NCBI GenBank assembly: GCA_937961665.1
Contig: CALGMO010000082.1
Coordinates: 2,122 to 66,121 of the forward strand
Length of the DNA: 64,000 bases
Origin: an uncultured Fimbriimonadaceae bacterium
GTDB lineage: Bacteria > Armatimonadota > Fimbriimonadia > Fimbriimonadales > Fimbriimonadaceae
Direction of reading: 5' to 3'
The notes beneath the pieces were generated by a model. That model saw only the letters and a list, made by a program, of their open reading frames with translations, was not told the origin of the DNA and did not search any database. Position numbers and translations under genes: made by a program. Of the stretch, positions 32,469-47,491 are shown piece after piece (within the stretch, counting starts at the first letter, position 1; each line of letters starts with the position of its first letter).

Positions 32469-33264
32469 GGCGGAAAGGCTTCACAAGAGGATCGCGGCGA
32501 GCGGCCTCTGCAGCCGGCGCGCGGCCGAGGAGCTGATCCGGCAGGGCCGGGTCTCCGTGAACGGCCGGATCGTCACCGAGCTCGGCACCAAGGTCGGCCC
32601 GGACGACCGGGTGGAGGTGGACGGCCAGCCGATCGCCCGGCCGCGGAAGGTCGCGCTGGTGATGAACAAGCCCGAGGGGGTGCTCACGACCCTCAGCGAC
32701 CCCCGAGGCCGACGGACGGTGGCGCATCTCCTTCCGCGCCTGGATGTGACGGTCAAGCCGGTGGGCAGGCTGGACATGGACACGTCGGGTGTGCTGCTGT
32801 TCACCAACGACGGGGAGCTCGCCGCCCGGCTGACCCATCCGCGCTACGGCGTGGTCAAGGAGTACCGCGCCGAGGTGCGGGGCGTCCCCGACGAGAAGGA
32901 TCTGGAGCGGCTGCGCAAGGGCGTGCACATCGAGGGCGGGAAGACGGCTCCGGCGGAGGTGCGGCTGATCGGCACGCGCCAGGGCGGCGATTCCGCCGTG
33001 GTGGTGCTGCGCATCCACGAGGGGAGGAACCGCCAGGTCCGGCGGATGATGGAGGCGGTCGGCCATCCGGTCCTCAAGCTGCGGCGCACGCGCTTCGGCC
33101 CGATCTCCGCGTCGAGGATGGCGCCGGGCGAGTGCCGGATGCTCGGCAGGGAGGAGCTCGATCGGCTCCGCGTGCTGGTCGGCCTGCCGCCGGAGGAGCG
33201 GTCCCGTGAGGGTCGCCGCCCAGGGGGCCGGCCCCGGAAGGGCGACCCTCGCGGCGACGGCTAG
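32449..33264 (+). CDS. rluB: Pseudouridine synthase, RluB/RsuA family (S4 domain plus catalytic domain)
   Basis: The internal Met start gives the S4 domain ERLHKRIAASGLCSRRAAEELIRQGRVSVNG and the catalytic GRLDMDTSGVLLFTNDG. Arg/Gly-rich tail. It overlaps the dac gene by 20 nt. Confidence 0.8.
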   Translation: MAEGDGEAERLHKRIAASGLCSRRAAEELIRQGRVSVNGRIVTELGTKVGPDDRVEVDGQPIARPRKVALVMNKPEGVLTTLSDPRGRRTVAHLLPRLDVTVKPVGRLDMDTSGVLLFTNDGELAARLTHPRYGVVKEYRAEVRGVPDEKDLERLRKGVHIEGGKTAPAEVRLIGTRQGGDSAVVVLRIHEGRNRQVRRMMEAVGHPVLKLRRTRFGPISASRMAPGECRMLGREELDRLRVLVGLPPEERSREGRRPGGRPRKGDPRGDG

Positions 33265-34289
33265 AACTGGAACTGGTCGATGTTGTCCTTGGTGAACACC
33301 AGGATGTCGCCGAGAAGGACGTTGTCGCCCTCGACCCTCTTCTCTCCCAGCCGACCGGCCTTGACCGTCGGGTCCGTGCCCTTGAACGTCCCGCGCACCA
33401 GCTGGGCGGCCACCTGCACGGTCAGGTAGCCCAGGTCCTTCGTGTTCCAGAGGATCACGGACTTCACCGTGCCGTCCTTGACGTACGCGCGCATGTCGTT
33501 GGGCGTGCTGAGGCCCGTCACCTGGACCTGTCCCGCCTTCCCGGCCTGCTTGATCCCCTCCGCGGCTCCTGGGAACGCCGTCGAGCTGATGGCCAGGATT
33601 CCCTTCAGGTCGGGGCTGGCCTTGATCAGGTCCTGGGCCGCCTGGAACGCGAGCTTCTGGTCCTCGTTCGAGGGCACCACCGATCCCAGGCGCAGGTTCG
33701 GATACGCCTTCAGCCTCTCCTTGATATGGACGATCCACTCGTTCTGGTTGGCCGCCGTGGCGGTGGCGGTGATGATCGCCACCTCGCCCTTCACGTCCTT
33801 GCCGCCCATGTCCTTGACGAGCGTGTCGACCAGCGCGGTGCCGATCTGCTCGGCGGTGGCCTGGTTCACGAACACCTCCCGCGCGTCGGACGGAGCGTCG
33901 GCGTCCCAGGTGATCACCTTGACGCCCTTCTGCCGGGCGGCCTTCATCGCGGGCGCCAGCACGTTCGGATCGTTCGGCGACACGCAGATCGCGTCGACGC
34001 CCTGCAGGGCCCACTTCTCGACCATCGCGGCCGCCTTCTCCGGCGAGCCGTCCGTCGGGCCGTCGTAGATCAGCTCCACGTCCAGCTCCTTGGCGGCCTC
34101 CTGCGCGCCCTCCGCGCACGACGTGAAGTAGGGGATGCCTTTCTGCTTGGGCAGCAGGCAGATCGTGATCCGCCCCTTTTCGCCCTGCGTCGGCCCGTTG
34201 GGCGAGCCCTCCTGCCCCTGCGGACCGCCGCAGCCGCCGATCAGCAACATTGCGGCCGTCGCGGCCGCCAGCAGCGTCTTCGCACGCAT
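33261..34289 (-). CDS. Sugar ABC transporter substrate-binding lipoprotein, RhaS-like (CUT2)
   Basis: Lipobox LLIGGC. Periplasmic-binding-protein type I pattern (…GIPYFTSCAEGAQEAAKELDVELIYDGPTDGS…VDAICVSPNDP…VITWDAD…) resembles rhamnose/AI-2-type binding proteins. Confidence 0.8.
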   Translation of the reverse strand: MRAKTLLAAATAAMLLIGGCGGPQGQEGSPNGPTQGEKGRITICLLPKQKGIPYFTSCAEGAQEAAKELDVELIYDGPTDGSPEKAAAMVEKWALQGVDAICVSPNDPNVLAPAMKAARQKGVKVITWDADAPSDAREVFVNQATAEQIGTALVDTLVKDMGGKDVKGEVAIITATATAANQNEWIVHIKERLKAYPNLRLGSVVPSNEDQKLAFQAAQDLIKASPDLKGILAISSTAFPGAAEGIKQAGKAGQVQVTGLSTPNDMRAYVKDGTVKSVILWNTKDLGYLTVQVAAQLVRGTFKGTDPTVKAGRLGEKRVEGDNVLLGDILVFTKDNIDQFQF

Positions 34290-34293
34290 GGTC

Positions 34294-35232
34294 TCAACCT
34301 CCTTCGACAGACCCGGCTGGGCGACGGGAGATTACCCCGTTGAGGGTCACCGCTCCGATCAGCAGCGCTCCGACCACCACCAGGTTCAACACGTCGTTGC
34401 TCCACCGCCAGCCGACGAACTGCCTCACCTCGTGCAGCACCGCCAGCCCGAGCGCCGTGCCGACCAGCGTGCCCCTGCCGCCGAAGATGCTCGTTCCACC
34501 GAGCACCACCGCCGTGACGACCTCCAGCTCGATGCCCGCGCCGACGTCGGCCTTGGCGGTGTTGCGCCTGGCCGTGAACAGCACGCCGGCAACCCCGGCC
34601 ATCAGCCCCGAGAACGCGTACAGCGAAGCCTTCAGACGGTCCACGTTCCACCCGCTCGCGCGCGCCGCGGACTCGCCCAGGCCGATGCCGTAGATCCGGC
34701 GTCCCAGAACGTGGCGGGCCAGCACGGCCGTTCCCGCGAGGGTGAGGGCCGCGAACAGGCCGACGGCCGTCCAGCCCTGGCCGATCCGAAGGAACGTGTC
34801 GGGAAACCCGCTGACCGGCCGGGCGGCGCTGACGCCCTCCGCCAGACCCCGGAACGCGGACATCGTGCCCAGGGTGACGATCAGCGGGTGCACCCGGAAC
34901 CGCGTGACGAACCACCCGTTGAGCGCCCCGCACAGCAGCCCCGCCGCCAGCGCGGCCGCGGCGCACGCCTCCACGGGCCACCCAGACCGGAAGCCCAGCC
35001 CGAACAGCACCGACGCCAGCGCCATGACGGAGCCGACGGAGAGATCGATGCCGCCGGTGATCACGATCAGGGTCATCGGCACCGCGAGCAGCGCGGTCTC
35101 GCCGATCTGGGGAAGCAGGCCCGACTGCACCCGCCAAGAGACGAAGGCCGGGTCGGTCCGCCAAGCCGCCACGAGCAGCGCCGCCAGAAGGGCGGCGAGA
35201 CCGGCCTCGTGCGTCGCGATGAGCCGCCTCAC
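34294..35232 (-). CDS. Sugar ABC transporter permease (RhaQ-like)
   Basis: 312 aa, polytopic, with ITGGIDLSVGSV and LGGTSIFGGRGT motifs of CUT2 permeases. The GTG start overlaps the upstream stop (GTGA 35229-35232). Confidence 0.85.
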   Translation of the reverse strand: MRRLIATHEAGLAALLAALLVAAWRTDPAFVSWRVQSGLLPQIGETALLAVPMTLIVITGGIDLSVGSVMALASVLFGLGFRSGWPVEACAAAALAAGLLCGALNGWFVTRFRVHPLIVTLGTMSAFRGLAEGVSAARPVSGFPDTFLRIGQGWTAVGLFAALTLAGTAVLARHVLGRRIYGIGLGESAARASGWNVDRLKASLYAFSGLMAGVAGVLFTARRNTAKADVGAGIELEVVTAVVLGGTSIFGGRGTLVGTALGLAVLHEVRQFVGWRWSNDVLNLVVVGALLIGAVTLNGVISRRPAGSVEGG

Positions 35233-36179
35233 GCCCGGGCCTCCCTGCGCCGTCCGGCGGCGTCCCCCATCACCGCGGCCAGAATCAGCGCGCCTTGGAT
35301 CGCCCGCTCCCAGTACAGGCTGCTCTCGCCCAGCTGAAGGAAGATCAGCACGGTCCGCACGGAGCTGAGCAGCAGCACGCCGAGCACGACCCCGAGGATC
35401 GTTCCCGTGCCGCCGCGGATCGACACTCCGCCCACCACCACGCACGTGACCACCAGGAGCTCGAAGCCCACGCCCACGCCGCTGTCGACCAGTGAGAGCC
35501 GGGGCACGCTCACCAGGGTGGCCAACGCCACCAGCAGGCCGGCCAGGCCGAACGCCGCCAGCTTCGTGCGCCCGACCGGAATGCCCGCCAGGCGCGCCGA
35601 GTCGGCGTTCGAGCCGACCGCGAACACCCGCCGTCCCCAGGCGGTGCGGTTCGCCAGAAGCCACGTGAGGGCCACCACGGCGGCGCACGCCGCGATCGGC
35701 ACCGGCACCCCGAGCACCGAGCCCGTTCCCCAGGCGCGCAGACCGTCCGGAAGGCGGGTGATCCACTTGCCGCCCATCAGAAGCTCGTTGGCGCCCTTCA
35801 GCACCGAAAGCATCCCCAGGGTGACGATGATGCTGGGCACCCTCACCAGCGACACCAGGACGCCGTTGAGCAGCCCCACCCCCAGCCCCAGGGCGAGCGT
35901 GGCCGCCACGGCCAGCGAGGGCGGAAGCCCGAGGCGGTCGGGCGACGAGAGCGTGCCCGCGACCGCGGCGCACAGACCCAGGAGCGAGCCGATCGAGATG
36001 TCGATCTCGCCGGACGCCACGACCAGCATCAGTCCACAGGCCGCGATCAAGGTCGGCGCGGCCGCCAGCATCAGGTCGGTCAGGTTGCGGGGGCTCAGAA
36101 AGGCGGGGTTGATCGCCGTGGCCAAGGCGCAAAGCAGCGCCAGAACGAGCGCGGGGCCGGGAACGCCGCGGAGCCTCAC
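35229..36179 (-). CDS. Sugar ABC transporter permease (RhaP-like)
   Basis: 316 aa, with SGEIDISIGSLL and VGGVSIRGGTGT motifs. The GTG start overlaps the ATPase stop (GTGA 36176-36179). Confidence 0.85.
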   Translation of the reverse strand: MRLRGVPGPALVLALLCALATAINPAFLSPRNLTDLMLAAAPTLIAACGLMLVVASGEIDISIGSLLGLCAAVAGTLSSPDRLGLPPSLAVAATLALGLGVGLLNGVLVSLVRVPSIIVTLGMLSVLKGANELLMGGKWITRLPDGLRAWGTGSVLGVPVPIAACAAVVALTWLLANRTAWGRRVFAVGSNADSARLAGIPVGRTKLAAFGLAGLLVALATLVSVPRLSLVDSGVGVGFELLVVTCVVVGGVSIRGGTGTILGVVLGVLLLSSVRTVLIFLQLGESSLYWERAIQGALILAAVMGDAAGRRREARA

Positions 36180-37666
36180 GCCGCTCCCTCCTCCGGGAGG
36201 ATCAGCGACAGCAGCGCCGGCTCCGAGAACTCGCTCCGGCGGAGCTCTCCGCTGATCCTGCCGCCCCGCAGCGCCACGATCCGGTCGCACAGGGCCAGCA
36301 GCTCCGGCATGTCGGAAGACGCCGCCAGCACCGCGGCACCCTCGGCGGCCAGTCGGCGGACCAGCTGGTGCACCTCGTGCTTCGCGCCGACGTCCACCCC
36401 GCGCGTCGGCTCGTCCAGCAGCAGCAGGCGCGGACCCAGGAACAGGCCCTTGGCCAGAACCACCTTCTGCTGGTTGCCTCCGCTCAGCGACGAGGCCGGG
36501 GCGCGCACGCCGGCGCACTTGATCTGCAGCAGCCGAGCCATGGCCTCCGCCCGCGCCCGCTCGGCGCCGGGCGAGATCCAGCCGAGCCGGGAGACCGCGC
36601 CGAGCGACGCCATCGACACGTTCCAGGAGACGGGCCAGGAAGGAATCAGGCCCTGGCGGTGCCGGTCCTCGGGCACCAGGGCCACGCCCGCGGCGAGGGA
36701 CGAGGGGACGCTGCCGGGCCGCAGCGCGCGGCCGCCGACCGTCGCTTTGCCCTCGCGGAAGCGCCGGAGGCCGTAGATCGCCTCCAGGAGCTCGGTGCGT
36801 CCGGCCCCGACCAACCCCGCCAAGCCGACGACCTCTCCCGAGCGCACCTCCAGACTCACGCCCTCGAACGCGCCGGGCAGGCTCAGCCCCTCGACCCGGA
36901 GCACCGGGCCGCCGGCGGCCGCGGTCTCGGTGGACGGAGCCTCGGGCACCTCCCGCCCGACCATCCTCCGGATCAGGCCGTCACGGTCCGTCTCCCGCGC
37001 GGGCAGGGTGTCCACCTTACGTCCGTCGCGCAGCACGGTGATGCGGTCGGCCAGCGCGAACACCTCGTCCAGCCGGTGGCTGACGTACAGCACCGACACG
37101 CCCCGCTCCCGCATCCGGCGGACCACGGCGAACAGCGCGTCGGTCTCGCGGGCCGAGAGCGCGGCCGTCGGCTCGTCCAGGATCAGCAGCCTGCACTCGC
37201 GCACCAGCGCGCGCGCCAAAGCCACCATCTGCCGCTGGGCCATCGGAAGCTCGCCGACCGGCCTCGCCAGCGGCAGATCCTCGCCCAGCTCCCGCAGCGC
37301 CTCCCGGGTGCGGCGCACCATCGCCCGGCGGTCGAGGAGCGGGCCGCGCCGAGGCTCCCACCCTAGGAACACGTTGTCGACGGCATCCAGGTCGGGGAAC
37401 GAAACCGGCTCCTGGTGGATGGCCGCGATGCCGGCGGCCTCGCACCGGTGCACTCCCTCGGGCAGGGGCGCTCCCAGCCAGAGGACTCGCCCCGCGCTGG
37501 GCCTTAGAGCTCCGCAGAGGATGCGGATCAGCGTGGACTTGCCCGCTCCGTTCTCTCCGCAGAGCGCGTGCACCTCTCCCTCGGCGATGTCGAGGTTGAC
37601 CCCGTCGAGCGCCCGCACGCCGCCGAAGCTCCGTCCCAAACCCTCGGTGCGAAGCAGCTCCGCCAT
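36176..37666 (-). CDS. Sugar ABC transporter ATP-binding protein with two nucleotide-binding domains (RhaT-like)
   Basis: Walker A GENGAGKST, a second NBD with GLVGAGRTE, LSGGNQQK signature and Walker B LLLLDEPTRGVD. Confidence 0.9.
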   Translation of the reverse strand: MAELLRTEGLGRSFGGVRALDGVNLDIAEGEVHALCGENGAGKSTLIRILCGALRPSAGRVLWLGAPLPEGVHRCEAAGIAAIHQEPVSFPDLDAVDNVFLGWEPRRGPLLDRRAMVRRTREALRELGEDLPLARPVGELPMAQRQMVALARALVRECRLLILDEPTAALSARETDALFAVVRRMRERGVSVLYVSHRLDEVFALADRITVLRDGRKVDTLPARETDRDGLIRRMVGREVPEAPSTETAAAGGPVLRVEGLSLPGAFEGVSLEVRSGEVVGLAGLVGAGRTELLEAIYGLRRFREGKATVGGRALRPGSVPSSLAAGVALVPEDRHRQGLIPSWPVSWNVSMASLGAVSRLGWISPGAERARAEAMARLLQIKCAGVRAPASSLSGGNQQKVVLAKGLFLGPRLLLLDEPTRGVDVGAKHEVHQLVRRLAAEGAAVLAASSDMPELLALCDRIVALRGGRISGELRRSEFSEPALLSLILPEEGAA

Positions 37667-37674
37667 CCCTCGGC

Positions 37675-37695
37675 AGGGCAGGTTACCCCTGCCCT
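37675..37695. promoter_or_regulatory. 8-bp inverted repeat AGGGCAGG/CCTGCCCT in the divergent region between the two sugar ABC operons
   Basis: Read directly: 37675-37682 and 37688-37695 with a 5-nt spacer. It could be an operator or a 5' leader hairpin. A CATAAT -10-like hexamer lies at 37745-37750. Confidence 0.3.
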
Positions 37696-37758
37696 CTTCC
37701 GGCTGGGAACCCGGTTAACGGGTGAACTCGGAACCCCGGTGTTGCATAATGGGCTTGT

Positions 37759-40161
37759 ATGCTCCGATTCCGCTCCGTCGCGGTGCTTGCAGCGTTGCCC
37801 CTGTGCGCCCTCGCGTTGGCCAAGGAGCCGGTCACCCTCCGCTTCACGGTGTGGGACGGCGACGAGTCGCTGAGGGTGATCAAGCGCATCCTGGCGCAGT
37901 TCGAGAGGGAGAACCCGGACATCCGCGTGAAGCTCGAGCCGATCACGGACTACGTCTCCTACCACCAGAAGATGATCACCATGTACGCGGCCGGCGTCGC
38001 CCCGGACGTGTGCATGATGGACATGCCGAACTTCCAGGCTCTGGCCAAGCGCGGCGCACTGGTGCCTCTGAACGACCTGATGGCCAAGACGCCCGGCTTC
38101 GACATCAAGGAGTACTACGAGCCGATCGTTCGGGCGCACAGCTACCAGGGCAAGCTATACGTCCTGCCGAGGGACATCGCCCCGATGGGCCTCGTCTACT
38201 ACAACAAGCGCCTGTTCGACGAGGCCGGCATCCCGTATCCCGACGGCACTTGGACGTGGGACTTCCAACCTCGGCCCGAGCTCCGCGAGAAGTGCTTCAC
38301 CTGGGTGATGCAGCAACTCACCAAGGTGGACAAGAACGGCAAGAAGATCCAGTGGGGGTTCGCGCCGGGATGGCCCGAGCTGTTCGCCACCACGCTCACC
38401 TACTCCTACGGCGGCCGGTACACCGACAACCCCGAGGCGCCCACCAAGGTGCTCATCAACGAGCCCAAAACGGTTAAGGCCTACCAGTTCGCCGCGGACT
38501 GCATGAACAAGTACGGCTGGATCCCCAACCAGAACGACCTGCTGGGCCAGCTGCAGTCCACGACCCAGATGCTGTTCGTGAACCAGAAGATCGCGATGTT
38601 CCAGAACGGCATCTGGGAGGTCCCGAACATGAGGAAGTACCTCAAGCCGGGCGAGAAGGGGTTCTTCGAGTGGGACATCACGCTGTTCCCGGCGTACAAG
38701 GACGGCCGGCGCGCGGCGCCAACCGGCGGATCGGGCTACGCGATCTTCACGTCGACCAAGCACCTGGACGAGGCCTGGCGCCTCACCCGCTACATGTCCG
38801 GCCCCGTGGCGATGACGTACATGGCCCAAGCCGGGATCGCCCAGCCCGCGATCCGCAAGCTGGCCCTCACCCCGGACGTGTGGCTTCCCGGACCCAACAC
38901 CCCCAAGGAGCAGCTGTACCCCTACAGCCGCATCTGGACCGACCGCGCGGTGCCCTACGTCGTGTTCAGCGAGAACGCCGACTACTGGCCCGAGGTGGGC
39001 GGACGGATGCGCGCGGGCATGGACCTGCTCTGGAACGGCCAGAAGGACGCCAAGGAGACCCTGGACCGCGGCGCGAGGGAGGCCCAGCAGCGCCTCGACG
39101 CGATCCTCAAGGAGCAGCGCAACCCGCCGTACAACTGGGTCGCGGGGGGCGTCGTCGGGCTGCTCATCGCGGCGGCCATCGCGCTGTGGGTGTTCTGGCC
39201 GGAGCGGAAGATCCGCTACACGCACCGGGAGAAGCTCGAGAGCAGGTCGGCGTTCCTGTTCGCCAGCCCTTGGATCGTCGGCATGATCGTGTTCACGCTG
39301 GGGCCGATGATCCTCTCGCTGCTGATGGGCTTCGCCGACTGGGACATCATCCGGCAGGCCAAGTGGCGCGGCCTGGGCAACTTCCACGAGGCGTTCTTCG
39401 TGGATCCGGTCTTCTGGAAGTCGCTCCGCGTGACGTTCGTGTACACGTTCGTGGCGGTGCCGCTGGGCCTGATCGGCTCCCTGGCGCTCGCGCTGCTGAT
39501 GAACCAGAAGGTGCGGGGCATCCCGCTGTTCCGGACTTTCTACTACATCCCCTCGCTCGCTTCGCTGGTGGCCGCCTCGCTGATCTGGCGCCGCGTGTTC
39601 CAGCCGGAGGGCGGCCTGCTGAACACCCTGCTCTACAGCCCGGTGGGCGAGTGGCTGGGCATCCCGAAGCTGCTCGCCGAGTGGGCCCAGGTGCCGGCCG
39701 GCCAGCAGATCAACTGGCTGGGAACGGAGCAGACGGCTCTGCCGGCTCTGATCATCATGTCCCTGTGGGGCATCGGCGGAGGGATGGTGATCCTTCTGGC
39801 GGGCCTGCAGGGGATTCCGCAGTTCTACTACGAGGCCGCGACGCTCGACGGGGCAGGCATCTGGGACCGCTTCAAGGCCGTCACCCTGCCGCTGCTCAGC
39901 CCGTCGCTGTTCTTCTCGCTGGTCACCGGTTTCATCGGCTCGTTCCAGGTGTTCACCCAGGCGTTCGTGATGACCGGAGGCGGGCCGAACGACGCCACGA
40001 GGTTCTTCATGTTCCACCTGTATTCCCAGGCTTTCCAGAACCTGAGGATGGGATACGCCAGCGCCCTGGCCTGGATCCTGTTCTTCATCATCCTGATCTT
40101 CACGCTCATCCAGTTCAAGATGAGCAAGTGGGTGTACTACGAGGCTGAGGTGAAGAAGTGA
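37759..40161 (+). CDS. Fusion protein: CUT1-type extracellular solute-binding protein + linker TM helix + MalF/UgpA-type ABC permease
   Basis: Single 800-aa ORF. Signal peptide MLRFRSVAVLAALPLCALALAKE. SBP family-1-like body to about aa 455. TM helix WVAGGVVGLLIAAAIALWVFW (aa 460-480, nt 39136-39198). The permease has the EAA-loop region YEAATLDGAGIWDRFKAVTLPLL. Confidence 0.8.
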   Translation: MLRFRSVAVLAALPLCALALAKEPVTLRFTVWDGDESLRVIKRILAQFERENPDIRVKLEPITDYVSYHQKMITMYAAGVAPDVCMMDMPNFQALAKRGALVPLNDLMAKTPGFDIKEYYEPIVRAHSYQGKLYVLPRDIAPMGLVYYNKRLFDEAGIPYPDGTWTWDFQPRPELREKCFTWVMQQLTKVDKNGKKIQWGFAPGWPELFATTLTYSYGGRYTDNPEAPTKVLINEPKTVKAYQFAADCMNKYGWIPNQNDLLGQLQSTTQMLFVNQKIAMFQNGIWEVPNMRKYLKPGEKGFFEWDITLFPAYKDGRRAAPTGGSGYAIFTSTKHLDEAWRLTRYMSGPVAMTYMAQAGIAQPAIRKLALTPDVWLPGPNTPKEQLYPYSRIWTDRAVPYVVFSENADYWPEVGGRMRAGMDLLWNGQKDAKETLDRGAREAQQRLDAILKEQRNPPYNWVAGGVVGLLIAAAIALWVFWPERKIRYTHREKLESRSAFLFASPWIVGMIVFTLGPMILSLLMGFADWDIIRQAKWRGLGNFHEAFFVDPVFWKSLRVTFVYTFVAVPLGLIGSLALALLMNQKVRGIPLFRTFYYIPSLASLVAASLIWRRVFQPEGGLLNTLLYSPVGEWLGIPKLLAEWAQVPAGQQINWLGTEQTALPALIIMSLWGIGGGMVILLAGLQGIPQFYYEAATLDGAGIWDRFKAVTLPLLSPSLFFSLVTGFIGSFQVFTQAFVMTGGGPNDATRFFMFHLYSQAFQNLRMGYASALAWILFFIILIFTLIQFKMSKWVYYEAEVKK

Positions 40162-41072
40162 GCGCCGTCCAAGAGACCGTGCCCGCGAAGTTCGACGCCG
40201 AGGCGGCCGAGCGGTTCCGGCGGGCCGCCAAGCGCGCGGAGACGATCGACCGGATTCTGAAGGTGCTGCTGTGGGTGGTGCTGTTCTCCGGCGTGATCCT
40301 GGCGATGCTGCCGCTGTGGATCATGCTGATGATGTCGCTGAAGACGCCCAACGAGATCGCCAACAGCGCCGCGTGGGCGTGGCCCAGGGACCTCACCTGG
40401 GACAACTTCCGCGAGGTCCTCACCAACCCCAACGCGCCGTTTCTGCTGTTCTTCCGGAACTCGGTGATCATCAGCACCCTGACCACCGCGGGCGTGGTGC
40501 TGACCTCGGCGATGGTCGCCTATCCGTTCGCCCGGCTGAAGTTCCGGGGCAGGGACCGCCTGTTCATCCTTCTGCTCAGCACGATGATGCTGCCGGGCGT
40601 GGTCACGATGATCCCGACCTACGTGATGTACGCCCAGATCAAGTGGGTCAACACGTTCTATCCGCTGATCGTGCCGGCCTGGTTCGGGGGCGGTGCGTTC
40701 AACATCTTCCTGCTCCGGCAGTTCTTCATGGGCATCCCTCGCGACCTGGACGAGGCCGCGATCCTCGACGGCGCCAACCACGCGACGATCTTCTGGCGCG
40801 TGATTCTGCCGAACGCGGGAGCGGCGCTGGCCACGGTGGGGGTGTTCTGCTTCATCTACAACTGGCGCGACTTCATGGGGCCGCTCATCTACCTGAACAG
40901 CCCCGACATGCAGACGCTGGAGGTCGGTCTGCGCACCTACCAGAGCCTGCAGTCCGAGCAGTGGCACCTGCTGATGGCCGGCTCCGTGCTGGTCATGCTG
41001 CCTCTGTTCGTGATCTTCCTGATCGGGCAGAAGTACTTCGTGAAGGGCATCGTGATGAGCGGCATCAAGTGA
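40158..41072 (+). CDS. CUT1 sugar ABC transporter permease (MalG/UgpE-like)
   Basis: EAA loop DEAAILDGANHATIFWRVILPN, six predicted TM segments. The GTG start overlaps the upstream stop (GTGA 40158-40161). Confidence 0.88.
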   Translation: MSAVQETVPAKFDAEAAERFRRAAKRAETIDRILKVLLWVVLFSGVILAMLPLWIMLMMSLKTPNEIANSAAWAWPRDLTWDNFREVLTNPNAPFLLFFRNSVIISTLTTAGVVLTSAMVAYPFARLKFRGRDRLFILLLSTMMLPGVVTMIPTYVMYAQIKWVNTFYPLIVPAWFGGGAFNIFLLRQFFMGIPRDLDEAAILDGANHATIFWRVILPNAGAALATVGVFCFIYNWRDFMGPLIYLNSPDMQTLEVGLRTYQSLQSEQWHLLMAGSVLVMLPLFVIFLIGQKYFVKGIVMSGIK

Positions 41073-41079
41073 GCCGGTT

Positions 41080-43206
41080 CTACCGCTCGGCTCTCGCCAG
41101 CTCGACCAGAGCCAGCGAGTGGGCGGGAACCAGCAGGCTTAGGCGGTCGCCGGCCGTCCTCGTCCGCCGCTCCTCCAGCCACACCTCGTCCGGTCCGCCC
41201 CGGCTCGCCCGTCGGTGGACCGGATCCTCGGCCATTCTGGCCCACTCGATGCCGGGCACCTGCTGCGGCGCGGTTCCTGTGTGGGCGTCCACGCCGGTCC
41301 CTGTGAGGAGCGTCACCCTCGCCTCGCCGCTCGCTCGGAAGCCCTCCAGGCGGAGGGACGCCTTGGCGTTCCGCTCGAAGTGGTGGTTGATCACCACCAC
41401 CGTGAGCCGCCGTCCGTCCCCGCTCTTGGCGGCGTAGGCACGGACCCACGGCACTCCCCGGACGGCCGGCACCCAACCCACCGCCGGCGAGTCGAAGGTC
41501 GCCGTCTCGCAGGCGGTCGCCACCACCTGCTCGGCAAGCCGCCTCGAAAGGAGCTGGAAGGCCAGATAGCCGGCGGTGGGCGCGTACCGGTCTCCGCGCT
41601 GGCCCAGGAGGCCGATGAACAACGGGTCGATCAGGCCGAAGAAACACGCGGCCTGGACCCTCGGCCGTTCCAGCAGCACGCCGAAGACGGCCGCTGTGTA
41701 CAGGGCCGAGCCGAGCGTCTTGCAATGATCGGTGAAGCGCCCGTTCGGGGAGACTTGGAACAGCGGGCCCCACTCGGTCACCGCGATGCCGATCCGGTCG
41801 CGGTGCGGCGCGGGCAGCTCGGCGATCCGGCGGGCCAGGCCGTCCAGGCTCGCACGAACCAGCTCGGTCGCTCCGTACATCGCCGCGTACACCTCCCGGA
41901 GCGTGTGCCCCGAGTCGATCGGCAGCACGGGGGCGTAGGCATTGTGGACGGCGACGAAGTCCACGTGCGGCGCCACGGCGGGCAGCACCACGTCGGTCCA
42001 GTCCCTGTGCGGTTTGCCGGGGTAGAAGCTCTCGTCCAAGATCGCCCCGATGCGCACCGATGGGTCGGCGGCCCGGATGGCCTTCGCGAACTCCGTGGCG
42101 ATCTGGGCGTACTGCCGCGGCGTCTTCGCGACCGAGGCCGTGCCCTCGGAGCCGTCGTTCAGGTACAGCTCGTTGCCGATCTCCCACCAGCCGACCCTCG
42201 GTCCCCGGGACGGATGGTTGGTGAAGCGGACCCAGTCGGCGGCCTCCGCGGCGGTGCCGCTCCCGGCGTTCGCGGTGAACAGAAGGCCCGAGCCGACGGC
42301 CTTCGCGAACGACTGGATCTCCACCGTTCCGACGTTGTGCGCGAGCAGGTCGCCGGTGGCCGTCGCGGGGGTGCGGGGCCTCAGCGCCCGGGGGCCGACT
42401 TTGTCGCGCCAGTGATAGAAGTCGCTGAACGTGCCGCCGGGGAAGCGGATCAGGCCGACCCCGAGCTCGCGCGCGGCCTCCACGACCTCTGGCCGGAACC
42501 TCTCCCGCTCGGCGTCCCACAGGCCCTTGCCGTCCCAGATCCACTCAGTGTTCACCCCGAACAGCTCCCTCGGCGCCTTGCGGAGGACTCGGCCTGCGTC
42601 CACCCGGATGCTCGCCGCGACGGGGGTCGGGGGGAAGCTCCAGGCGGCCTCCAGTCGCTCCGGCACGCGGGTGCCCAGCGCGAGGTCGTCGAACAGCGCC
42701 TCCCCCGAGGTGCCCTCGGCCAGGCAAGCCACGACGGCCTTGGCCGTCTCATGCGGCAGCTCCACGATCCTCTCCCGGACCGCCGGCTCCGGACCCTCCG
42801 GGCCGTCGAGGAAGGCCAGCGCCAGCACGCCTCCCCGGGCGTCCATCGCCAAGACGGCCACCCGCGGCCGGGCGCCGAATTGGCCGCCCATCCGTGCCGA
42901 GAGATGCAGCCGCGCGGCCTTCAGCCACTCCCCCTGCAGCACCTGGCCTGCTCCGAGGAGCTTCTGGGGATCGGTGTTGCCGGCCGCGGGCAGGAGCGCG
43001 AGCACGTGGTTCCCGGGTCGCGCCGGATCCACCTTGCGCACGACCCGTCCCTTCCCGGGGGATTGCTCCGGGGCCCAGCCGCTCGGCAGCTCGGCCCCCT
43101 GCTCGAAGCCGGGGTTGGAGAGGGCGTTGCCGGCGGGGTCCGGGGACTTAGCGGCGCACCCCGCCGCGGCGAGCAGCGCGAGGAGGAGCAGATCGCGCGG
43201 GGCCAT
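41080..43206 (-). CDS. Lipoprotein glycoside hydrolase, clan GH-A (GH51 alpha-L-arabinofuranosidase-like) with N-terminal CBM4/9-like domain
   Basis: The internal Met start gives the lipobox LLAAAGC. CBM-like NPGFEQG...SGW. WWEIGNELY is a candidate acid/base motif, and IAVTEWGP is a candidate nucleophile. The first 79 codons of the track ORF are rejected. Confidence 0.7.
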   Translation of the reverse strand: MAPRDLLLLALLAAAGCAAKSPDPAGNALSNPGFEQGAELPSGWAPEQSPGKGRVVRKVDPARPGNHVLALLPAAGNTDPQKLLGAGQVLQGEWLKAARLHLSARMGGQFGARPRVAVLAMDARGGVLALAFLDGPEGPEPAVRERIVELPHETAKAVVACLAEGTSGEALFDDLALGTRVPERLEAAWSFPPTPVAASIRVDAGRVLRKAPRELFGVNTEWIWDGKGLWDAERERFRPEVVEAARELGVGLIRFPGGTFSDFYHWRDKVGPRALRPRTPATATGDLLAHNVGTVEIQSFAKAVGSGLLFTANAGSGTAAEAADWVRFTNHPSRGPRVGWWEIGNELYLNDGSEGTASVAKTPRQYAQIATEFAKAIRAADPSVRIGAILDESFYPGKPHRDWTDVVLPAVAPHVDFVAVHNAYAPVLPIDSGHTLREVYAAMYGATELVRASLDGLARRIAELPAPHRDRIGIAVTEWGPLFQVSPNGRFTDHCKTLGSALYTAAVFGVLLERPRVQAACFFGLIDPLFIGLLGQRGDRYAPTAGYLAFQLLSRRLAEQVVATACETATFDSPAVGWVPAVRGVPWVRAYAAKSGDGRRLTVVVINHHFERNAKASLRLEGFRASGEARVTLLTGTGVDAHTGTAPQQVPGIEWARMAEDPVHRRASRGGPDEVWLEERRTRTAGDRLSLLVPAHSLALVELARAER

Positions 43207-43288
43207 GCGGCAGTATGGGTCCGGGACCGGCGGAGTCCCGGTGACCGTGCGCGCAACGCCGGGGAGGCGCGGCCCGTACCCCCTGACG

Positions 43289-43603
43289 ATGTCGCGAACG
43301 ATGAGGCTGGGTGTCGCGCTCCTTGCGGCGACGGTGGTGCTGCTGTCGGTCGGTTGCGCGCCGGGCGCGAACCCGCTGGCGAACCAGCCCGGACCGAGCG
43401 GAGAGACGGCCGGCTTCCTGCTCGGGCTCTGGCACGGCGCCATCGTCTGGATCTCGTTCGTTTGGTCGCTGTTCAGCCCGGGCGTGTCCGTCTACGAGGT
43501 GCACAACAACGGCTGGCCCTACAACCTCGGCTTCCTGCTGGGGGCCGGAGGAGTCTTGGGCGGCGGGGTGAAGGTGGTGCTGAGAGGCGACCGCCGGCGT
43601 TGA
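43289..43603 (+). CDS. Small membrane lipoprotein, hypothetical
   Basis: Lipobox LLSVGC followed by two hydrophobic segments (GFLLGLWHGAIVWISFVW, LGFLLGAGGVLGGG). No family recognised. Confidence 0.5.
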   Translation: MSRTMRLGVALLAATVVLLSVGCAPGANPLANQPGPSGETAGFLLGLWHGAIVWISFVWSLFSPGVSVYEVHNNGWPYNLGFLLGAGGVLGGGVKVVLRGDRRR

Positions 43604-43619: not shown

Positions 43620-44192
43620 TCACCCGCACTCGGCGTGGCGGAAGCAGGTCGTCAGGTGGTCGTTGACCATCCCTGCGGCCTGCATGTAGGCGTAGCAGAT
43701 CGTCGGCCCGACGAAGCAGAAGCCTCGCGCGGAGAGCTCCCGGCTCATCGAGCGGGCCTCCGGGCTTGTGGTTGGAACGTCGCGCGGGTCGGCCCATCGG
43801 TTGCGGATCGTCCGGCCGTCGGTGAAGCGCCACACGAACGCGTCGAACGAGCCGAACTGCTCCTGCACCGGCAGGAAGGCGCGGGCGTTGCGGACCGCGC
43901 CCTCGATCTTCCGTCGGTTGCGGATGATGCCCTCGTCCCGCATCAGCCGCTGGAGGTCCGCCTCGGTGAAGCCGGCGACCCGCACCGGGTCGAAGCCCGC
44001 GAAGGCTCGGCGGTAGCCCTCGCGGCGCTTCAGGATGGTCAGCCAGCTCAGGCCGGCCTGGGCGCCGTCCAGCACGAGGAACTCGAAGTGCCTGCGGTCG
44101 TCGTGAACCGGCACGCCCCACTCCTCGTCGTGGTACGCGATCTCCAGCGGGTGTTTGGCCCAGGGGCACCGGACTCGGGTGTCGGCGTCCAT
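43620..44192 (-). CDS. tag: DNA-3-methyladenine glycosylase I
   Basis: From the internal Met: RCPWAKHPLEIAYHDEEWGVPVHDDRRHFEFLVLDGAQAGLSWLTILKRR...IIRNRRKI..., which is typical Tag. The upstream 75 codons of the track ORF are rejected. Confidence 0.9.
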   Translation of the reverse strand: MDADTRVRCPWAKHPLEIAYHDEEWGVPVHDDRRHFEFLVLDGAQAGLSWLTILKRREGYRRAFAGFDPVRVAGFTEADLQRLMRDEGIIRNRRKIEGAVRNARAFLPVQEQFGSFDAFVWRFTDGRTIRNRWADPRDVPTTSPEARSMSRELSARGFCFVGPTICYAYMQAAGMVNDHLTTCFRHAECG

Positions 44193-44283
44193 TCCTGGGG
44201 GCCATCTTGGCCCGCGTGCGGGGCCGCCTGCTGGGCCGCGGTCGCGGGACCGGACGATTTCGGGAGGTAGCCTGACGGCAGCC

Positions 44284-44739
44284 ATGGGCGCAACGATGAG
44301 GTTCGACGGCAGGATCGAGCGCGTCGGCGCGAGAGCCCTGATCGCGCTGCCCGAAGAACCGCGCGAGGTCTGGGGCGACCGTCCGAGGTACGACGTCGCG
44401 GGATCGGTCGGCGGCAAGCCTTACCGCGGAAGGGTGGTCTTTCTGGACGGGCGCGCGTGGCTGCCGACCGGACCCGCCTTCCTCCGAGACGCCGGCCTCG
44501 CCCTCGGGCAGACGGTGAGCGTGGAGGTTGGTCTGGAGTGGCCCAGCCTCGAGGACCTCGAGCCTGACTTCCGGGCGGCGATCGAGGCCAGCCCCGCCGC
44601 GCGCGCCGCCTTCGAGGGGATGAACACCTTCTGCCGCAGGAACTGGGTTCGGTACGTGGCGGAGGCCAAGCGGCCGGAGACGCGCGCCCGGAGGATCGCC
44701 GAGGCGGTCCAGCGCCTCGAGGAAGGAGACGCCGGCTAG
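44284..44739 (+). CDS. DUF1905 / YdeI (OmpD-associated) family protein
   Basis: The N-terminal beta-barrel-like part MRFDGRIERVG...KPYRGRVVFLDGRAWLP and the C-terminal FCRRNWVRYVAEAKRPETRARRIAEAV are typical of YdeI-like proteins. Confidence 0.7.
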   Translation: MGATMRFDGRIERVGARALIALPEEPREVWGDRPRYDVAGSVGGKPYRGRVVFLDGRAWLPTGPAFLRDAGLALGQTVSVEVGLEWPSLEDLEPDFRAAIEASPAARAAFEGMNTFCRRNWVRYVAEAKRPETRARRIAEAVQRLEEGDAG

Positions 44740-46109
44740 CCCGAGGGCTTCTTGCCCTGGTCCAGGTGCACGACGGTGCCCATGAGCGTCTTCTCGGCCT
44801 CTCCGGTCTGGCCGCTCTGCAGGGCCCGAAGCGCCTGGGTCACCTCCTGCGCCTCCGCGACTCGGCCTTCGGCCAGAAGCAGGGCCTGCGTCTTCTGGAG
44901 CTCGGCCACCGCGGCCTGGGGGCTCAGCGCCTGCGTCTTCATGCCCAGGATGGTGCGCTCGACGGCGCGCGACGCCGCGGCGACCTGCGCGGCGGAGGCC
45001 ACGCGCGGGTCGGGCGGCACCGAGTAGCGCGCCGGATCGGCGGTGAACTCCATCACGAAGTCCAGATCCACCGTCGCGTTGCCGCTGTTCAGGCAGTCCT
45101 CGTACTCCAGAGTGCCGGAGGCCACCCGGTACCAGCCCAGCGGGTGGTTGGGAAACTCGAGGTCGAGCACGTGCTCGATCGCGCTGCCGCGCTCGAGATC
45201 GGCAAGGGGAACGTCGAACTCGCGCTGGCCCGGCGAGGGGGTCTGGCCGGCGACGCTGCGCGCCTCCACCCAGCGCGCCAGTTTCAACCGCAGCCGAAGG
45301 TTGCGGGCCACGACGGTCATGAGCCGCTCGATCTCCGCGCGGAAGATCTCGGGGATCAGCTCCGGGCGCGACACGTAGTAGTGGTTGCCGCCGGCGCGCT
45401 TGGCCATGGCGGCGAGAAGCTCCTCGTTGTAGTCGGGCCCAAAGCCGAGCAGGGTGAGCGTCGTGCCGCGCTCGCGCACCGCCGCCGCGGCGTTCACCAG
45501 GCTCGGGAAGTCGCGCACCCCAACGGTCGGCTCTCCGTCGGTCAGGAGCAGCATGCGCGAGGCCCGGCCGGTCTCCTGCGCCTGCACGATCTGCTGCAAG
45601 CCCAGGTTCACTCCGTCGTAAAGATTGGTCGTGTTGCCGATGGTCAGGCGGGCGATGCCGTCCAGGATCGGCTGCTTCTGGGTCACCCTCTGGGGCGGCA
45701 TCAGCACCTGGGCCGTCTCGTCGAACGCCACGATGCTCAGCACGTCGTTCGGCGTGAGCAGGTCCACCACGTAGCGGCAGGCCTGCTTCACGTATTCGAG
45801 CGGCGGGCCCTCCATCGACCCGGACCGGTCGATGACCAGACACAGGTTCATGGGCGTCCTCGCCGCCGGCCCGAGGAGCGTGTCCCCTTGGGCCGCGGTC
45901 AGGGCCAGCAGGAACTGCTCGCGAGCCGGACCGTTGGCCATCGTGGCCTCGCGGCTCGGCACGACCTCGGCCCTCAGCGCCTGCAGAGGGGCCATGGCCG
46001 TGGTGCGCATCCCCGCGCCGAGCCCGGAGGCCATCGCCTGCGTCCTGGCGGGATCGGCTCCGGGAGGGGGCGCGGCCTGCGTCTTGTTGGGGTCGAAGTT
46101 GGGGTTCAT
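44736..46109 (-). CDS. von Willebrand factor A (vWA) domain protein with complete MIDAS motif
   Basis: Starts at MNPNFDPNK. MIDAS LVIDRSGSMEG, then ...NTTNLYDG... and LLLTDGEPT. An uncharacterised C-terminal half of about 200 aa follows. The ATG overlaps the upstream stop (ATGA 46106-46109). Confidence 0.85.
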   Translation of the reverse strand: MNPNFDPNKTQAAPPPGADPARTQAMASGLGAGMRTTAMAPLQALRAEVVPSREATMANGPAREQFLLALTAAQGDTLLGPAARTPMNLCLVIDRSGSMEGPPLEYVKQACRYVVDLLTPNDVLSIVAFDETAQVLMPPQRVTQKQPILDGIARLTIGNTTNLYDGVNLGLQQIVQAQETGRASRMLLLTDGEPTVGVRDFPSLVNAAAAVRERGTTLTLLGFGPDYNEELLAAMAKRAGGNHYYVSRPELIPEIFRAEIERLMTVVARNLRLRLKLARWVEARSVAGQTPSPGQREFDVPLADLERGSAIEHVLDLEFPNHPLGWYRVASGTLEYEDCLNSGNATVDLDFVMEFTADPARYSVPPDPRVASAAQVAAASRAVERTILGMKTQALSPQAAVAELQKTQALLLAEGRVAEAQEVTQALRALQSGQTGEAEKTLMGTVVHLDQGKKPSG

Positions 46110-47491
46110 GCTTGCTCCACGCGGAAATCGGTGCCTCCGAGGCGCAGCACGTCGCCGGCCTTGGCGACGGCGTGGCTCACACGCTGGCCGTTCAGAAACG
46201 TGCCGTTGGTGCTCCCGAGGTCGAGCACGGAGAGACCTCCCGGCGCGGGCTCGAGGACCGCGTGCCGACGGCTGGCCATCGGGTCGGCGACCAGTGGCGA
46301 GCCCGGCACGTCCCGGCCCAGCTCCATGCGGGAGGCGACCGGGATCCTCTGCCCCGCCAGCGGCCCGCCCAGCGGCACCAGCGATAGGCCGGCGGACGCC
46401 GCCGCTGGCGACACCGCGATCGTGGGCTGGCCCCCGCCCGAGGGCACGACGACCGTGGGCTGACCGGCCAAAGGCGGGCCGCCCGCGGTGGCCATCGCCA
46501 CGGGCTGGGCGCCGCTGGGGGCCTGCACCTGGGTCTGCCACTGCTGCCGGAGGGCCTCCGCCGCCCGCGCGGGCGCCGAGCCCTCGCGCATCACGAACTC
46601 CAGCCGAGTCGAGCCCACTTGGATCAGCGCCCCGGAGAACAGCGGCACCTGGCGGATCGGCGTGCCGTTCACGAACGTCCCGCCCGGCGCGCCGCAGTCG
46701 GCCAGGTAGTAGGTTCCGCCGTGCAGCTGGATCACCGCGTGCTGGGGAGCCACGGCGGGGTCGTCCAGGATCGGGATGTGCGCCAGCTCGCTCCGGCCGA
46801 TCGTGGTCTCGGCCGCGTCCACGATCCACTCGCGGTACTCGTTGCGCCCGTAGATGCGCCGGACCCAGGCGGTTCGGGTCGCCCGGATGATCAGGCTGGT
46901 GAACAGGCCCACGCCCCCGCCCGTCGCCACCGCCAGGATCGCCCGTCCCGTGGTTCCCACCTCGTCGCCGCCCCGCACCGTCTGCACCAGGGGCGAGAGC
47001 GCCAGGCTGGCGAAGTCGAACGTCAGGCCTCCCAGGCCCGCGCCCAGGGCGCCGCCGACCAGCGCGTAGCGGGCCCTCCGCCAGCTCCTCGAGGGGATCG
47101 CCGCGGCCAGGCCGATCGTCGCCCCGATGGGAACGAACGCCACGAACCGGGCGGGGAGCGTCGTGGCGTGGATCCCCGGCCGGGTCAGCACGTCCCCGAA
47201 GAACAGGCTCGAGAGCGCTCCGCCGAGGCCCGCGCCCACCGTGCCGCCCACCGCCCCCAAGACGAGGCCCGCGCCCAAGCCCCGCCAGACGTGCGCGGGG
47301 CTTCCTTGGGCCCGGCCCTGCACCGCACCCAGCGTGGAGCCCACCAGCGCCCCCAGCAGGGCCATGAAGGTCGCGCCCCACGAGTCCCACCGCGGGTCGA
47401 AGAACATCGTGGGCGCGAAGGGCTCCATCAGCGCGAACGCCGTGAGTCCGGCCACGGCCCCGGCCAGCGCGGTGAACAGCACGAAGCCCAT
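46106..47491 (-). CDS. Polytopic Gly-rich membrane protein with two cytoplasmic FHA domains (first one degenerate)
   Basis: The N-terminal ~200 aa hold GxxxG-rich TM segments. FHA1 reads IGRSE...VAPQHAV...DCGAPGGTFVNG. FHA2 reads LGRD...ASRRHAV...DLGSTNGTFLNG. Confidence 0.8.
   Translation of the reverse strand: MGFVLFTALAGAVAGLTAFALMEPFAPTMFFDPRWDSWGATFMALLGALVGSTLGAVQGRAQGSPAHVWRGLGAGLVLGAVGGTVGAGLGGALSSLFFGDVLTRPGIHATTLPARFVAFVPIGATIGLAAAIPSRSWRRARYALVGGALGAGLGGLTFDFASLALSPLVQTVRGGDEVGTTGRAILAVATGGGVGLFTSLIIRATRTAWVRRIYGRNEYREWIVDAAETTIGRSELAHIPILDDPAVAPQHAVIQLHGGTYYLADCGAPGGTFVNGTPIRQVPLFSGALIQVGSTRLEFVMREGSAPARAAEALRQQWQTQVQAPSGAQPVAMATAGGPPLAGQPTVVVPSGGGQPTIAVSPAAASAGLSLVPLGGPLAGQRIPVASRMELGRDVPGSPLVADPMASRRHAVLEPAPGGLSVLDLGSTNGTFLNGQRVSHAVAKAGDVLRLGGTDFRVEQA

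Follow-up and report, generated by a model that had tools for sequence, protein, structure and literature searches.

The gene under study lies in a 64,000-nucleotide stretch of DNA (the window) from an uncultured, soil-type Fimbriimonadaceae bacterium (Armatimonadota; Fimbriimonadia; contig CALGMO010000082.1 of assembly GCA_937961665.1) and encodes a single polypeptide in which a sugar-binding protein is joined through an additional transmembrane (TM) helix to a permease of the MalF/UgpA type. The observation of this fusion was confirmed and its interpretation was supported: the fusion is genuine and widespread, and represents a variant of the carbohydrate uptake transporter 1 (CUT1) family that has apparently not been characterised so far. 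The protein is likely to belong to a type I ATP-binding cassette (ABC) importer for oligosaccharides whose receptor is permanently built into the MalF/UgpA-like subunit. We also lean, with more reserve, towards the wider reading that such proteins make up a CUT1 class of several phyla with one permanently resident, tethered receptor that never leaves the translocator, and that this class has been overlooked since its members come almost exclusively from phyla with few cultured representatives.

The fusion was first noticed in a reading of the window made from its letters alone (referred to as the sequence-only reading), which described an open reading frame (ORF) without a stop, a signal peptide, a family-1 sugar-binding body up to about residue 455, an extra TM helix at residues 460-480 with a basic loop, and a complete MalF/UgpA-like permease with an EAA loop. 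All of these parts were recovered. The ORF was uninterrupted on re-reading, and the encoded protein of 800 amino acids is 100% identical to an NCBI entry (P0001) named 'extracellular solute-binding protein [Fimbriimonadaceae bacterium]'. Its N-terminal half matches the Pfam families SBP_bac_8 (residues 45-374, E-value 1.6e-32) and SBP_bac_1 (2.5e-31), both above the gathering score and together spanning residues 41-374, and these two were the only families found in this half by the Pfam scan at E-values of up to 0.01. In the scheme of Berntsson 2010, we assign the binding domain to cluster D-I. In the C-terminal half, BPD_transp_1 was matched above the gathering score at residues 579-785, and the NCBIfam model UgpA at residues 499-788 (2e-23), together with weaker matches to MalF and GlcT. 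The EAA motif YYEAATLDGAG is located at residues 690-700, and the residues E692, D697, T709 and P711 of this region are invariant across 93 fused proteins.

The segment between the two halves contains a strongly hydrophobic helix at residues 461-479 (Kyte-Doolittle value 2.47), and the following loop (residues 480-505) carries six lysine or arginine residues before the TM segments of the permease begin. The junction is free of gaps in an alignment of 12 fused proteins, in which W460 is invariant and the linker helix, 44% conserved and hydrophobic throughout, is bordered by flanks of about 70% conservation with the motifs LPxFNW on one side and WPER(K/G)x(K/R)Y on the other. A hydrophobic helix followed by a basic stretch and the permease was present at the equivalent position in all of the approximately 190 proteins of at least 700 residues that were examined for it, and a hydrophobic segment at the linker position in 110 of the 119 matches obtained in a search with a second subfamily described below. 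Lysine and arginine residues number 4.8 in the 15 positions after the linker helix as opposed to 2.2 in those before it (n = 323, Wilcoxon p ~8e-51). Because the EAA loop must face the cytoplasm in order to touch the ATPase, the N-terminus of the six-helix permease core would lie inside and the linker helix would run from the outside to the inside, which would place the binding domain outside the membrane; the signal peptide is consistent with this. The coherent topology that the sequence-only reading had derived from the extra helix thus agrees with both the EAA loop and the positive-inside bias. The binding domain is probably periplasmic rather than exposed at the cell surface, by analogy with Fimbriimonas ginsengisoli, which has been reported to be Gram-negative with genes for lipopolysaccharide (PMC4072686).

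At the N-terminus, the hydropathy scan revealed a signal-like hydrophobic segment at residues 2-25, which ends in ALA/KE. In the Fimbriimonadia clade, AxA-type motifs are kept just ahead of the mature start (E/K)(P/D)VTLRFxVW, and the residues at -3 and -1 are small, with the first conserved strand starting two to three residues further on. This pattern is typical of type I cleavage, and cleavage is accordingly predicted from the sequence for the window protein. If the segment were instead retained as an uncleaved signal anchor, the substrate-binding domain (SBD) would be anchored to the membrane by both of its ends; several distant members with long, very hydrophobic N-termini and no clear AxA site (P0130, P0153) would fit such an arrangement, as might a zinc-ribbon domain (PF12773) carried by P0313. 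For the window protein we consider a double anchor rather unlikely, since its own clade shows the small residues of the type I pattern (ALA/KE, AFA/KE, ASA/KD).

The AlphaFold2 model of the whole chain, computed with a 93-sequence alignment, reached a mean predicted local distance difference test (pLDDT) value of 92.1 and a predicted template modelling (pTM) score of 0.86. It comprises an N-terminal helix (residues 2-19), the last helix of the SBD (431-452), the linker helix (460-484) and six permease helices (489-523, 550-581, 588-613, 657-684, 701-738 and 764-791). Since no more than 54% of the residues belong to the SBD, a pTM value this high indicates that the placement of SBD and permease relative to each other is confidently predicted by the model. 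The closest solved relative of the SBD by sequence is AbnE (6rjy; residues 34-454, E-value 3e-26, about 24% identical), the arabino-oligosaccharide-binding protein of the AbnEFJ system of Geobacillus stearothermophilus. The alignment stops five residues short of the AbnE C-terminus and, combined with the helix boundaries of the model, gives a tether of only about seven residues between the last SBD helix and the linker helix. A Foldseek search of the PDB returned binding proteins only, all on the N-terminal half (template modelling score TMq at most 0.46 by query, TMt 0.73-0.88 by target), which include Lmo0181, AbnE, UspC and trehalose/maltose- and cellodextrin-binding proteins; Lmo0181 and AbnE lie at a TMt of 0.85-0.88, AbnE being second by fold with 0.85. 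The permease half matched SugA (8ja7, 5.8e-23), 7cad, 2r6g_F and 3fh6_F by sequence, and no PDB chain spanned both SBD and permease in either the sequence or the Foldseek search.

It seems quite improbable that the fused chain is a precursor that is cut near the linker, freeing a soluble or lipid-anchored solute-binding protein (SBP) and a separate permease as in a conventional mature system. The integrity of the mature chain is a matter of prediction, and a lipobox-like motif near the N-terminus of 36 out of 345 fused proteins could retain a released domain. However, the C-terminal end of the linker helix would be cytoplasmic and, as is well established, beyond the reach of signal peptidase, the short connector with its conserved LPxFNW contains no recognisable protease site, and the model places both halves confidently in one arrangement. 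In OpuA, the SBD likewise stays covalently linked to the transmembrane domain (TMD) (PMC11065425).

A homologue search of 5.8 billion proteins returned 419 matches at E-values of 1e-10 or below. The best 120 clusters at 90% identity consist entirely of proteins of 763-838 residues with both Pfam domains, which are 56-76% identical to the window protein, and the homologues include a 100% match from a Fimbriimonadaceae metagenome-assembled genome (MAG) and a protein of the cultured F. ginsengisoli. Scanning a junction-centred alignment over 185,579 species-representative genomes confirmed 107 stretches, of which 80 loci were kept; all of them cover the junction (query residues 1 to 265-269), and nearly all are labelled Armatimonadota or Fimbriimonadales. 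The fused frame forms a single tblastn high-scoring segment pair in these loci, and where the gene is complete on the contig, this pair extends from about query residue 23 to 799. The finished chromosome of the isolate F. ginsengisoli Gsoil 348 carries the same two-gene unit of fusion and MalG-like gene, with the orthologue at about 2,509,438-2,512,823 of CP007139. An assembly or sequencing artefact, in which a missed stop or frameshift joins adjacent SBP and malF-like genes, is thereby left with a negligible probability. A single error would suffice for it, as an SBP gene followed by a MalF-type gene is the usual order in CUT1 operons, and the window apparently derives from a MAG, judging by the name of P0001. 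Nevertheless, the frame is continuous across the genomes of 80 species, the finished chromosome of the isolate and several hundred independent clusters, and a plain read-through would not yield a hydrophobic helix and a basic loop that are conserved across phyla.

The fusion had been treated implicitly as rare, but it proved to be a large family. When 1.84 billion representatives at 50% identity were searched exhaustively with HMMER, 50,107 matches were obtained, mostly ordinary permeases and binding proteins; among the best 150 representatives, 74 have at least 700 residues, and most of these match the query from end to end with 29-47% identity. The 226 proteins of at least 700 residues, all taken as fused, form approximately 20 clusters at 40% identity, and a profile search with 52 distant fused proteins, to which a word pre-filter was applied, resulted in 79 matches. 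According to the source names, members originate from Armatimonadota, Phycisphaeraceae, Pirellulales and other Planctomycetota, while a second subfamily occurs in Candidatus Poribacteria, Gemmatimonadota, Latescibacterota, Armatimonadota and Planctomycetota. A search with a single sequence of the second subfamily returned 893 clusters at E-values of 1e-50 or below, the top 120 of which are all fused. The architecture is therefore spread over at least five phyla. The sequence-only reading had foreseen that its proposal would fall if the architecture turned out to be common and characterised; common it is, but no characterisation was found in the literature.

The second gene of the unit matches UgpE (4.7e-37) and MalG (3.5e-35) in NCBIfam and BPD_transp_1 above the cut-off in Pfam. 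Its GTG start overlaps the TGA stop of the fusion by four nucleotides (GTGA), as previously noted, and both F. ginsengisoli and a Planctomycetota MAG show the same overlap. A MalG-like gene lies directly 3' of the fusion in all of the 80 loci with enough sequence. With a UgpA/MalF-type C-terminal half, a UgpE/MalG-type next gene and a family-1 receptor (SBP_bac_1/SBP_bac_8, MalE fold), the fusion and its partner are on sequence grounds members of CUT1 (TC 3.A.1.1). One locus of a Planctomycetota MAG (L082) shows the fusion in a complete operon, where it is followed by the MalG-like subunit and a MalK-type ATPase (ABC_tran, OB_MalK and TOBE_2) and adjoins two alpha-amylases, a GH77 and a glucan phosphorylase. 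A separate binding-protein gene is absent from the 10 kb upstream and the 6.6 kb downstream of this fusion, so that the fused domain supplies the receptor there.

In the proposed working of the importer, the signal peptide would export the binding domain, after which the extra TM helix, aided by the basic WPERK loop, would return the chain to the cytoplasm and the six-helix core, with both ends cytoplasmic, would insert normally. The fusion would pair with the separate MalG-like subunit, to which it appears translationally coupled through the overlap of the two genes. As this partner has no receptor of its own, each transporter would possess exactly one tethered receptor. Because the connector is so short, the receptor should stay parked above the translocation pore, where it would open and close without diffusing away between cycles. 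ATP hydrolysis would be provided in trans by an ATPase of the MalK/MsiK type encoded elsewhere in the genome. Permanent docking, signal-peptide cleavage, the ATPase in trans and the substrate are the elements of this scheme that we infer. A different role, in which the fused domain acts as a sensor or regulator that gates the permease or signals the presence of substrate, with a free binding protein delivering the sugar, is given very little credence. F. ginsengisoli has been reported to possess 28 substrate-binding proteins, so that free ones would be available (PMC4072686). However, the window contains no other SBP_bac_1 gene, the genes adjoining the fusion include none for a free family-1 binding protein, be it in the window, in F. 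ginsengisoli or in the Planctomycetota operon, and the fused domain has a canonical full-length MalE-type fold that is predicted to sit where a receptor must dock.

Several points weigh against a CUT1 oligosaccharide importer with a permanently attached receptor. The case for it is built from sequence, domains, conservation, synteny and the predicted fold of the 88-kDa chain, and the docking of the SBD on the permease is read from the pTM score. The periplasmic loop between TM1 and TM2 contains five lysine or arginine residues, a mild exception to the positive-inside rule. A gene for a MalK-type ATPase was found neither in the 64-kb window nor within 6 kb of the fusion in any of the 80 Fimbriimonadia loci, and the energy module of the window pair is assumed. 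The earlier statement that no ATPase is encoded locally is thus correct for the MalK type, but not for ABC ATPases in general: the sole one in the window, with two nucleotide-binding domains, is encoded immediately upstream of the fusion as part of a divergent CUT2 operon. This operon forms a system of its own and does not serve the CUT1 pair as its energy module. CUT1 systems that share ATPases encoded elsewhere are known, as in the case of MsiK and MsmX.

The assignment of a substrate is weak as well and also counts on this side, as the identity of a substrate cannot be transferred from AbnE at the low level of sequence identity mentioned. The sequence-only reading had taken a GH51-like lipoprotein gene next to the transporter as a sign of polymer degradation at the cell surface. 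This ORF (41080-43443, reverse strand, 787 residues) is convergent with the MalG-like gene, with 7 bp between the stops, and its match is weak (GH51/ArfA in NCBIfam at 1.4e-30, with 107 bits where the cut-off is 625; Alpha-L-AF_C below the cut-off in Pfam); its true start is likely an internal methionine at 43206, with a lipobox-like LAAAGC behind it. The ORF is kept in only one of the 80 loci, that of a 95%-identical relative (L001), and was therefore discarded as a clue to the substrate. Sequence and model would allow the substrate of the window transporter to be described as an oligosaccharide and nothing more specific, and different members of the family probably take up different glycans. 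Indirect signs of a carbohydrate as cargo are the oligosaccharide-binding proteins among the structural neighbours of the SBD and the LacI and glycoside hydrolase genes that recur around orthologous loci.

Among the known importers, MalEFGK2 of E. coli (TC 3.A.1.1.1) belongs to the same CUT1 family and shares with the fusion system the family-1 receptor of the MalE fold, the heterodimer of MalF/MalG type with EAA loops and the docking of one receptor per transporter; its MalF chains 2r6g_F and 3fh6_F are among the PDB matches mentioned. It differs in that MalE is a free periplasmic protein, whereas the receptor described here is covalently joined. MalF has eight TM helices and a large P2 loop; the fusion possesses a minimal six-helix permease core with one new helix and has no adjacent malK. 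The closest permeases by sequence are those of UgpBAEC of E. coli and of the mycobacterial LpqY-SugABC (7cad, 8ja7), which also exhibit the six-helix architecture, but in both cases the receptor (UgpB and the lipoprotein LpqY, respectively) is a polypeptide of its own, and AbnE is a stand-alone protein, too.

Covalent attachment as such is known from OpuA and GlnPQ, with which the window fusion has the combination of SBD and permease in one polypeptide in common. The OpuA receptor has a different fold (cluster F, OpuAC), and the Pfam matches of the fusion are to family 1 rather than to the cluster-F type (SBP_bac_3/OpuAC). In OpuA, the glycine-betaine importer of Lactococcus lactis (OTCN family), the receptor is fused to the permease by way of a short linker and an additional TM helix that serves as an anchor, as in the present case; the linker has 11 residues (PMC11065425) compared to about seven in the window fusion, the SBD is located C-terminal to the permease, and the TMD is a homodimer with two receptors per complex. 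The fused subunit of the window is not of this homodimeric kind, as a distinct receptor-less MalG-like partner always follows it. The amino-acid importer GlnPQ of L. lactis (PAO family) is said, in work by van der Heide and Poolman from 2002 and later work of the Poolman laboratory, to have a signal peptide and one or more SBDs fused N-terminally to the permease. It differs in its two tandem cluster-F domains per chain, which give four receptors in the homodimer, in its amino-acid substrates, and in that no extra TM helix is needed, since the N-terminus of its permease faces outward.

The view that a tethered SBD is not a described feature of CUT1 importers was sustained: no description of a CUT1 SBP-permease fusion was found by full-text searches of the literature, which did not cover TCDB and InterPro, so that earlier cataloguing is possible. 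Reviews mention SBD-TMD fusions in general terms or for osmolyte systems only (PMC3971661, PMC8144104), and the genome paper of F. ginsengisoli counts 68 permeases besides the substrate-binding proteins and does not mention fusions (PMC4072686). The NCBI name of these proteins is 'extracellular solute-binding protein', and JGI lists them as 'multiple sugar transport system permease protein' or under a double COG label. As fusions are labelled as either SBP or permease, inventories of transporters in these phyla miscount the components.

If the proposed reading is correct, the principle of a covalent receptor-translocator, apparently studied only in amino-acid and osmolyte importers, would extend to the maltose-type family, which provides the textbook model of ABC import, without overturning the mechanism of ABC import. 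The fused CUT1 design would have a strict 1:1 stoichiometry and almost no linker, as opposed to the two and four receptors of OpuA and GlnPQ. It would represent a natural 'tethered MalE' experiment and a single-chain test of whether release of the receptor is required in the type I cycle. Such a natural single-chain system could show how the rate of uptake depends on the length of the tether and on the local concentration, and would be attractive for cryo-electron microscopy and single-molecule work, with the orthologue of the cultured F. ginsengisoli Gsoil 348 as a starting point for culture-based studies. Table 1 lists the features of the locus.

Table 1. Features of the fusion locus and of the divergent CUT2 operon, with positions in the window.
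Feature	Position	Strand	Basis
CUT2 operon, binding protein (Peripla_BP_4)	33261-34289	-	
CUT2 operon, permease ORF	34294-36132	-	
CUT2 operon, permease ORF	35229-36518	-	
CUT2 operon, ATPase	36176-37666	-	
Intergenic region of 92 bp separating the divergent CUT2 ATPase (-) and fusion genes, presumed to hold the promoter	37667-37758	.	ORF coordinates
Fusion gene, SBD-TM-permease polypeptide, 800 aa, stop codon included	37759-40161	+	ORF, Pfam, NCBIfam, homologues
Signal peptide, aa 1-21 (MLRFRSVAVLAALPLCALALA before KEP), type I cleavage predicted	37759-37821	+	Hydropathy, AxA-type motifs of the clade
Extracytoplasmic SBD, aa 22-452, MalE/AbnE-type, family 1	37822-39114	+	Pfam, PDB, Foldseek
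Connector, aa 453-459, QRNPPYN, then invariant W460; consensus LPxFNW	39115-39135	+	AlphaFold2, junction alignment
Extra linker TM helix, aa 460-484, predicted outside to cytoplasm	39136-39210	+	Kyte-Doolittle, AlphaFold2
Basic cytoplasmic loop PERKIRYTHREK, aa 481-492, conserved WPER motif	39199-39234	+	Hydropathy, alignment
UgpA/MalF-type permease core, aa 489-800, six TM helices	39223-40158	+	NCBIfam, Pfam, PDB, AlphaFold2
EAA loop/coupling-helix region EAATLDGAGIWDRFKAVTLP, aa 692-711, ATPase docking site	39832-39891	+	Direct sequence reading
Second permease subunit of the UgpE/MalG type, 304 aa, starting with GTG	40158-41072	+	NCBIfam, Pfam, synteny

To distinguish one origin of the fusion from several, a neighbour-joining tree of permease domains (84 fused, 42 stand-alone and 19 ambiguous) was built, which showed intermixed classes, with distances saturated at about 1.0 in every class. 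Many Fimbriimonadia genomes contain at least two fused SBD-permease paralogues from one subfamily alone, and the fused design may be a standard CUT1 format in this class. Paralogous pairs in the same genome are L007 and L070, L010 and L056, L012 and L032, L069 and L073, L047 and L068, L005 and L076, and L011 and L058. Longer fused variants are P0156 (941 residues), P0164 (920), P0202 (959), P0203 (934), P0168 (884) and P0313 (886), the last being the carrier of the zinc ribbon. Compared with the window protein, their linker helix is shifted by about 70-170 residues towards the C-terminus, with the extra residues N-terminal to the helix, and these variants may be further elaborations, for example with additional carbohydrate-binding or regulatory modules. 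The MAG labels among L046, L050, L080 and L045 include Archangium gephyra, Synechococcus sp. and 'uncultured archaeon', and L045 ('Chthonomonas calidirosea') has the same tblastn coordinates and identities as L044 (Fimbriimonadaceae MsE-15). These four bins are probably mislabelled or contaminated, and organism names in the family need caution.

Clustering of the flanking ORFs revealed no universal neighbour across the 80 loci. Recurrent neighbours are N_methyl pseudopilin-like proteins (16 loci), LacI (10), GH1 (6), PF10091 (5) and GH5-like proteins (4). The N_methyl proteins, which carry the prepilin-type N-terminal methylation motif, are mostly encoded just upstream of the fusion (e.g., L060:3724-4812); their frequency may be meaningful or may only reflect the abundance of such genes in these genomes. 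In F. ginsengisoli, the fusion and MalG-like genes stand alone amid unrelated genes. The CUT2-type (ribose-like) operon of the window, which is divergent from the fusion gene, is complete and occupies 33261-37666 on the reverse strand. A scan of the region upstream of the fusion gene for the sigma-70 consensus gave no match, and a scan of the fusion locus for promoters and terminators found nothing on the forward strand.

Both transporter genes (37500-41000) have a GC content of 0.62-0.68 compared to 0.70-0.77 in the flanks. Horizontal transfer was considered and rejected, as the low GC content at 37.5-41 kb is not a transfer signal given that GC at third codon positions is about 0.95, as in the neighbouring genes; the drop is probably due to the amino-acid composition of membrane proteins rather than to foreign DNA. 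Further downstream on the reverse strand, reading by eye suggested a Tag-like DNA-3-methyladenine glycosylase motif, HDEEWGVPVHDD, in 43620-44417, a von Willebrand A-type motif, VIDRSGSM, in the C-terminal part of 44736-47390, and a membrane protein with two FHA-like segments in 46106-47491.

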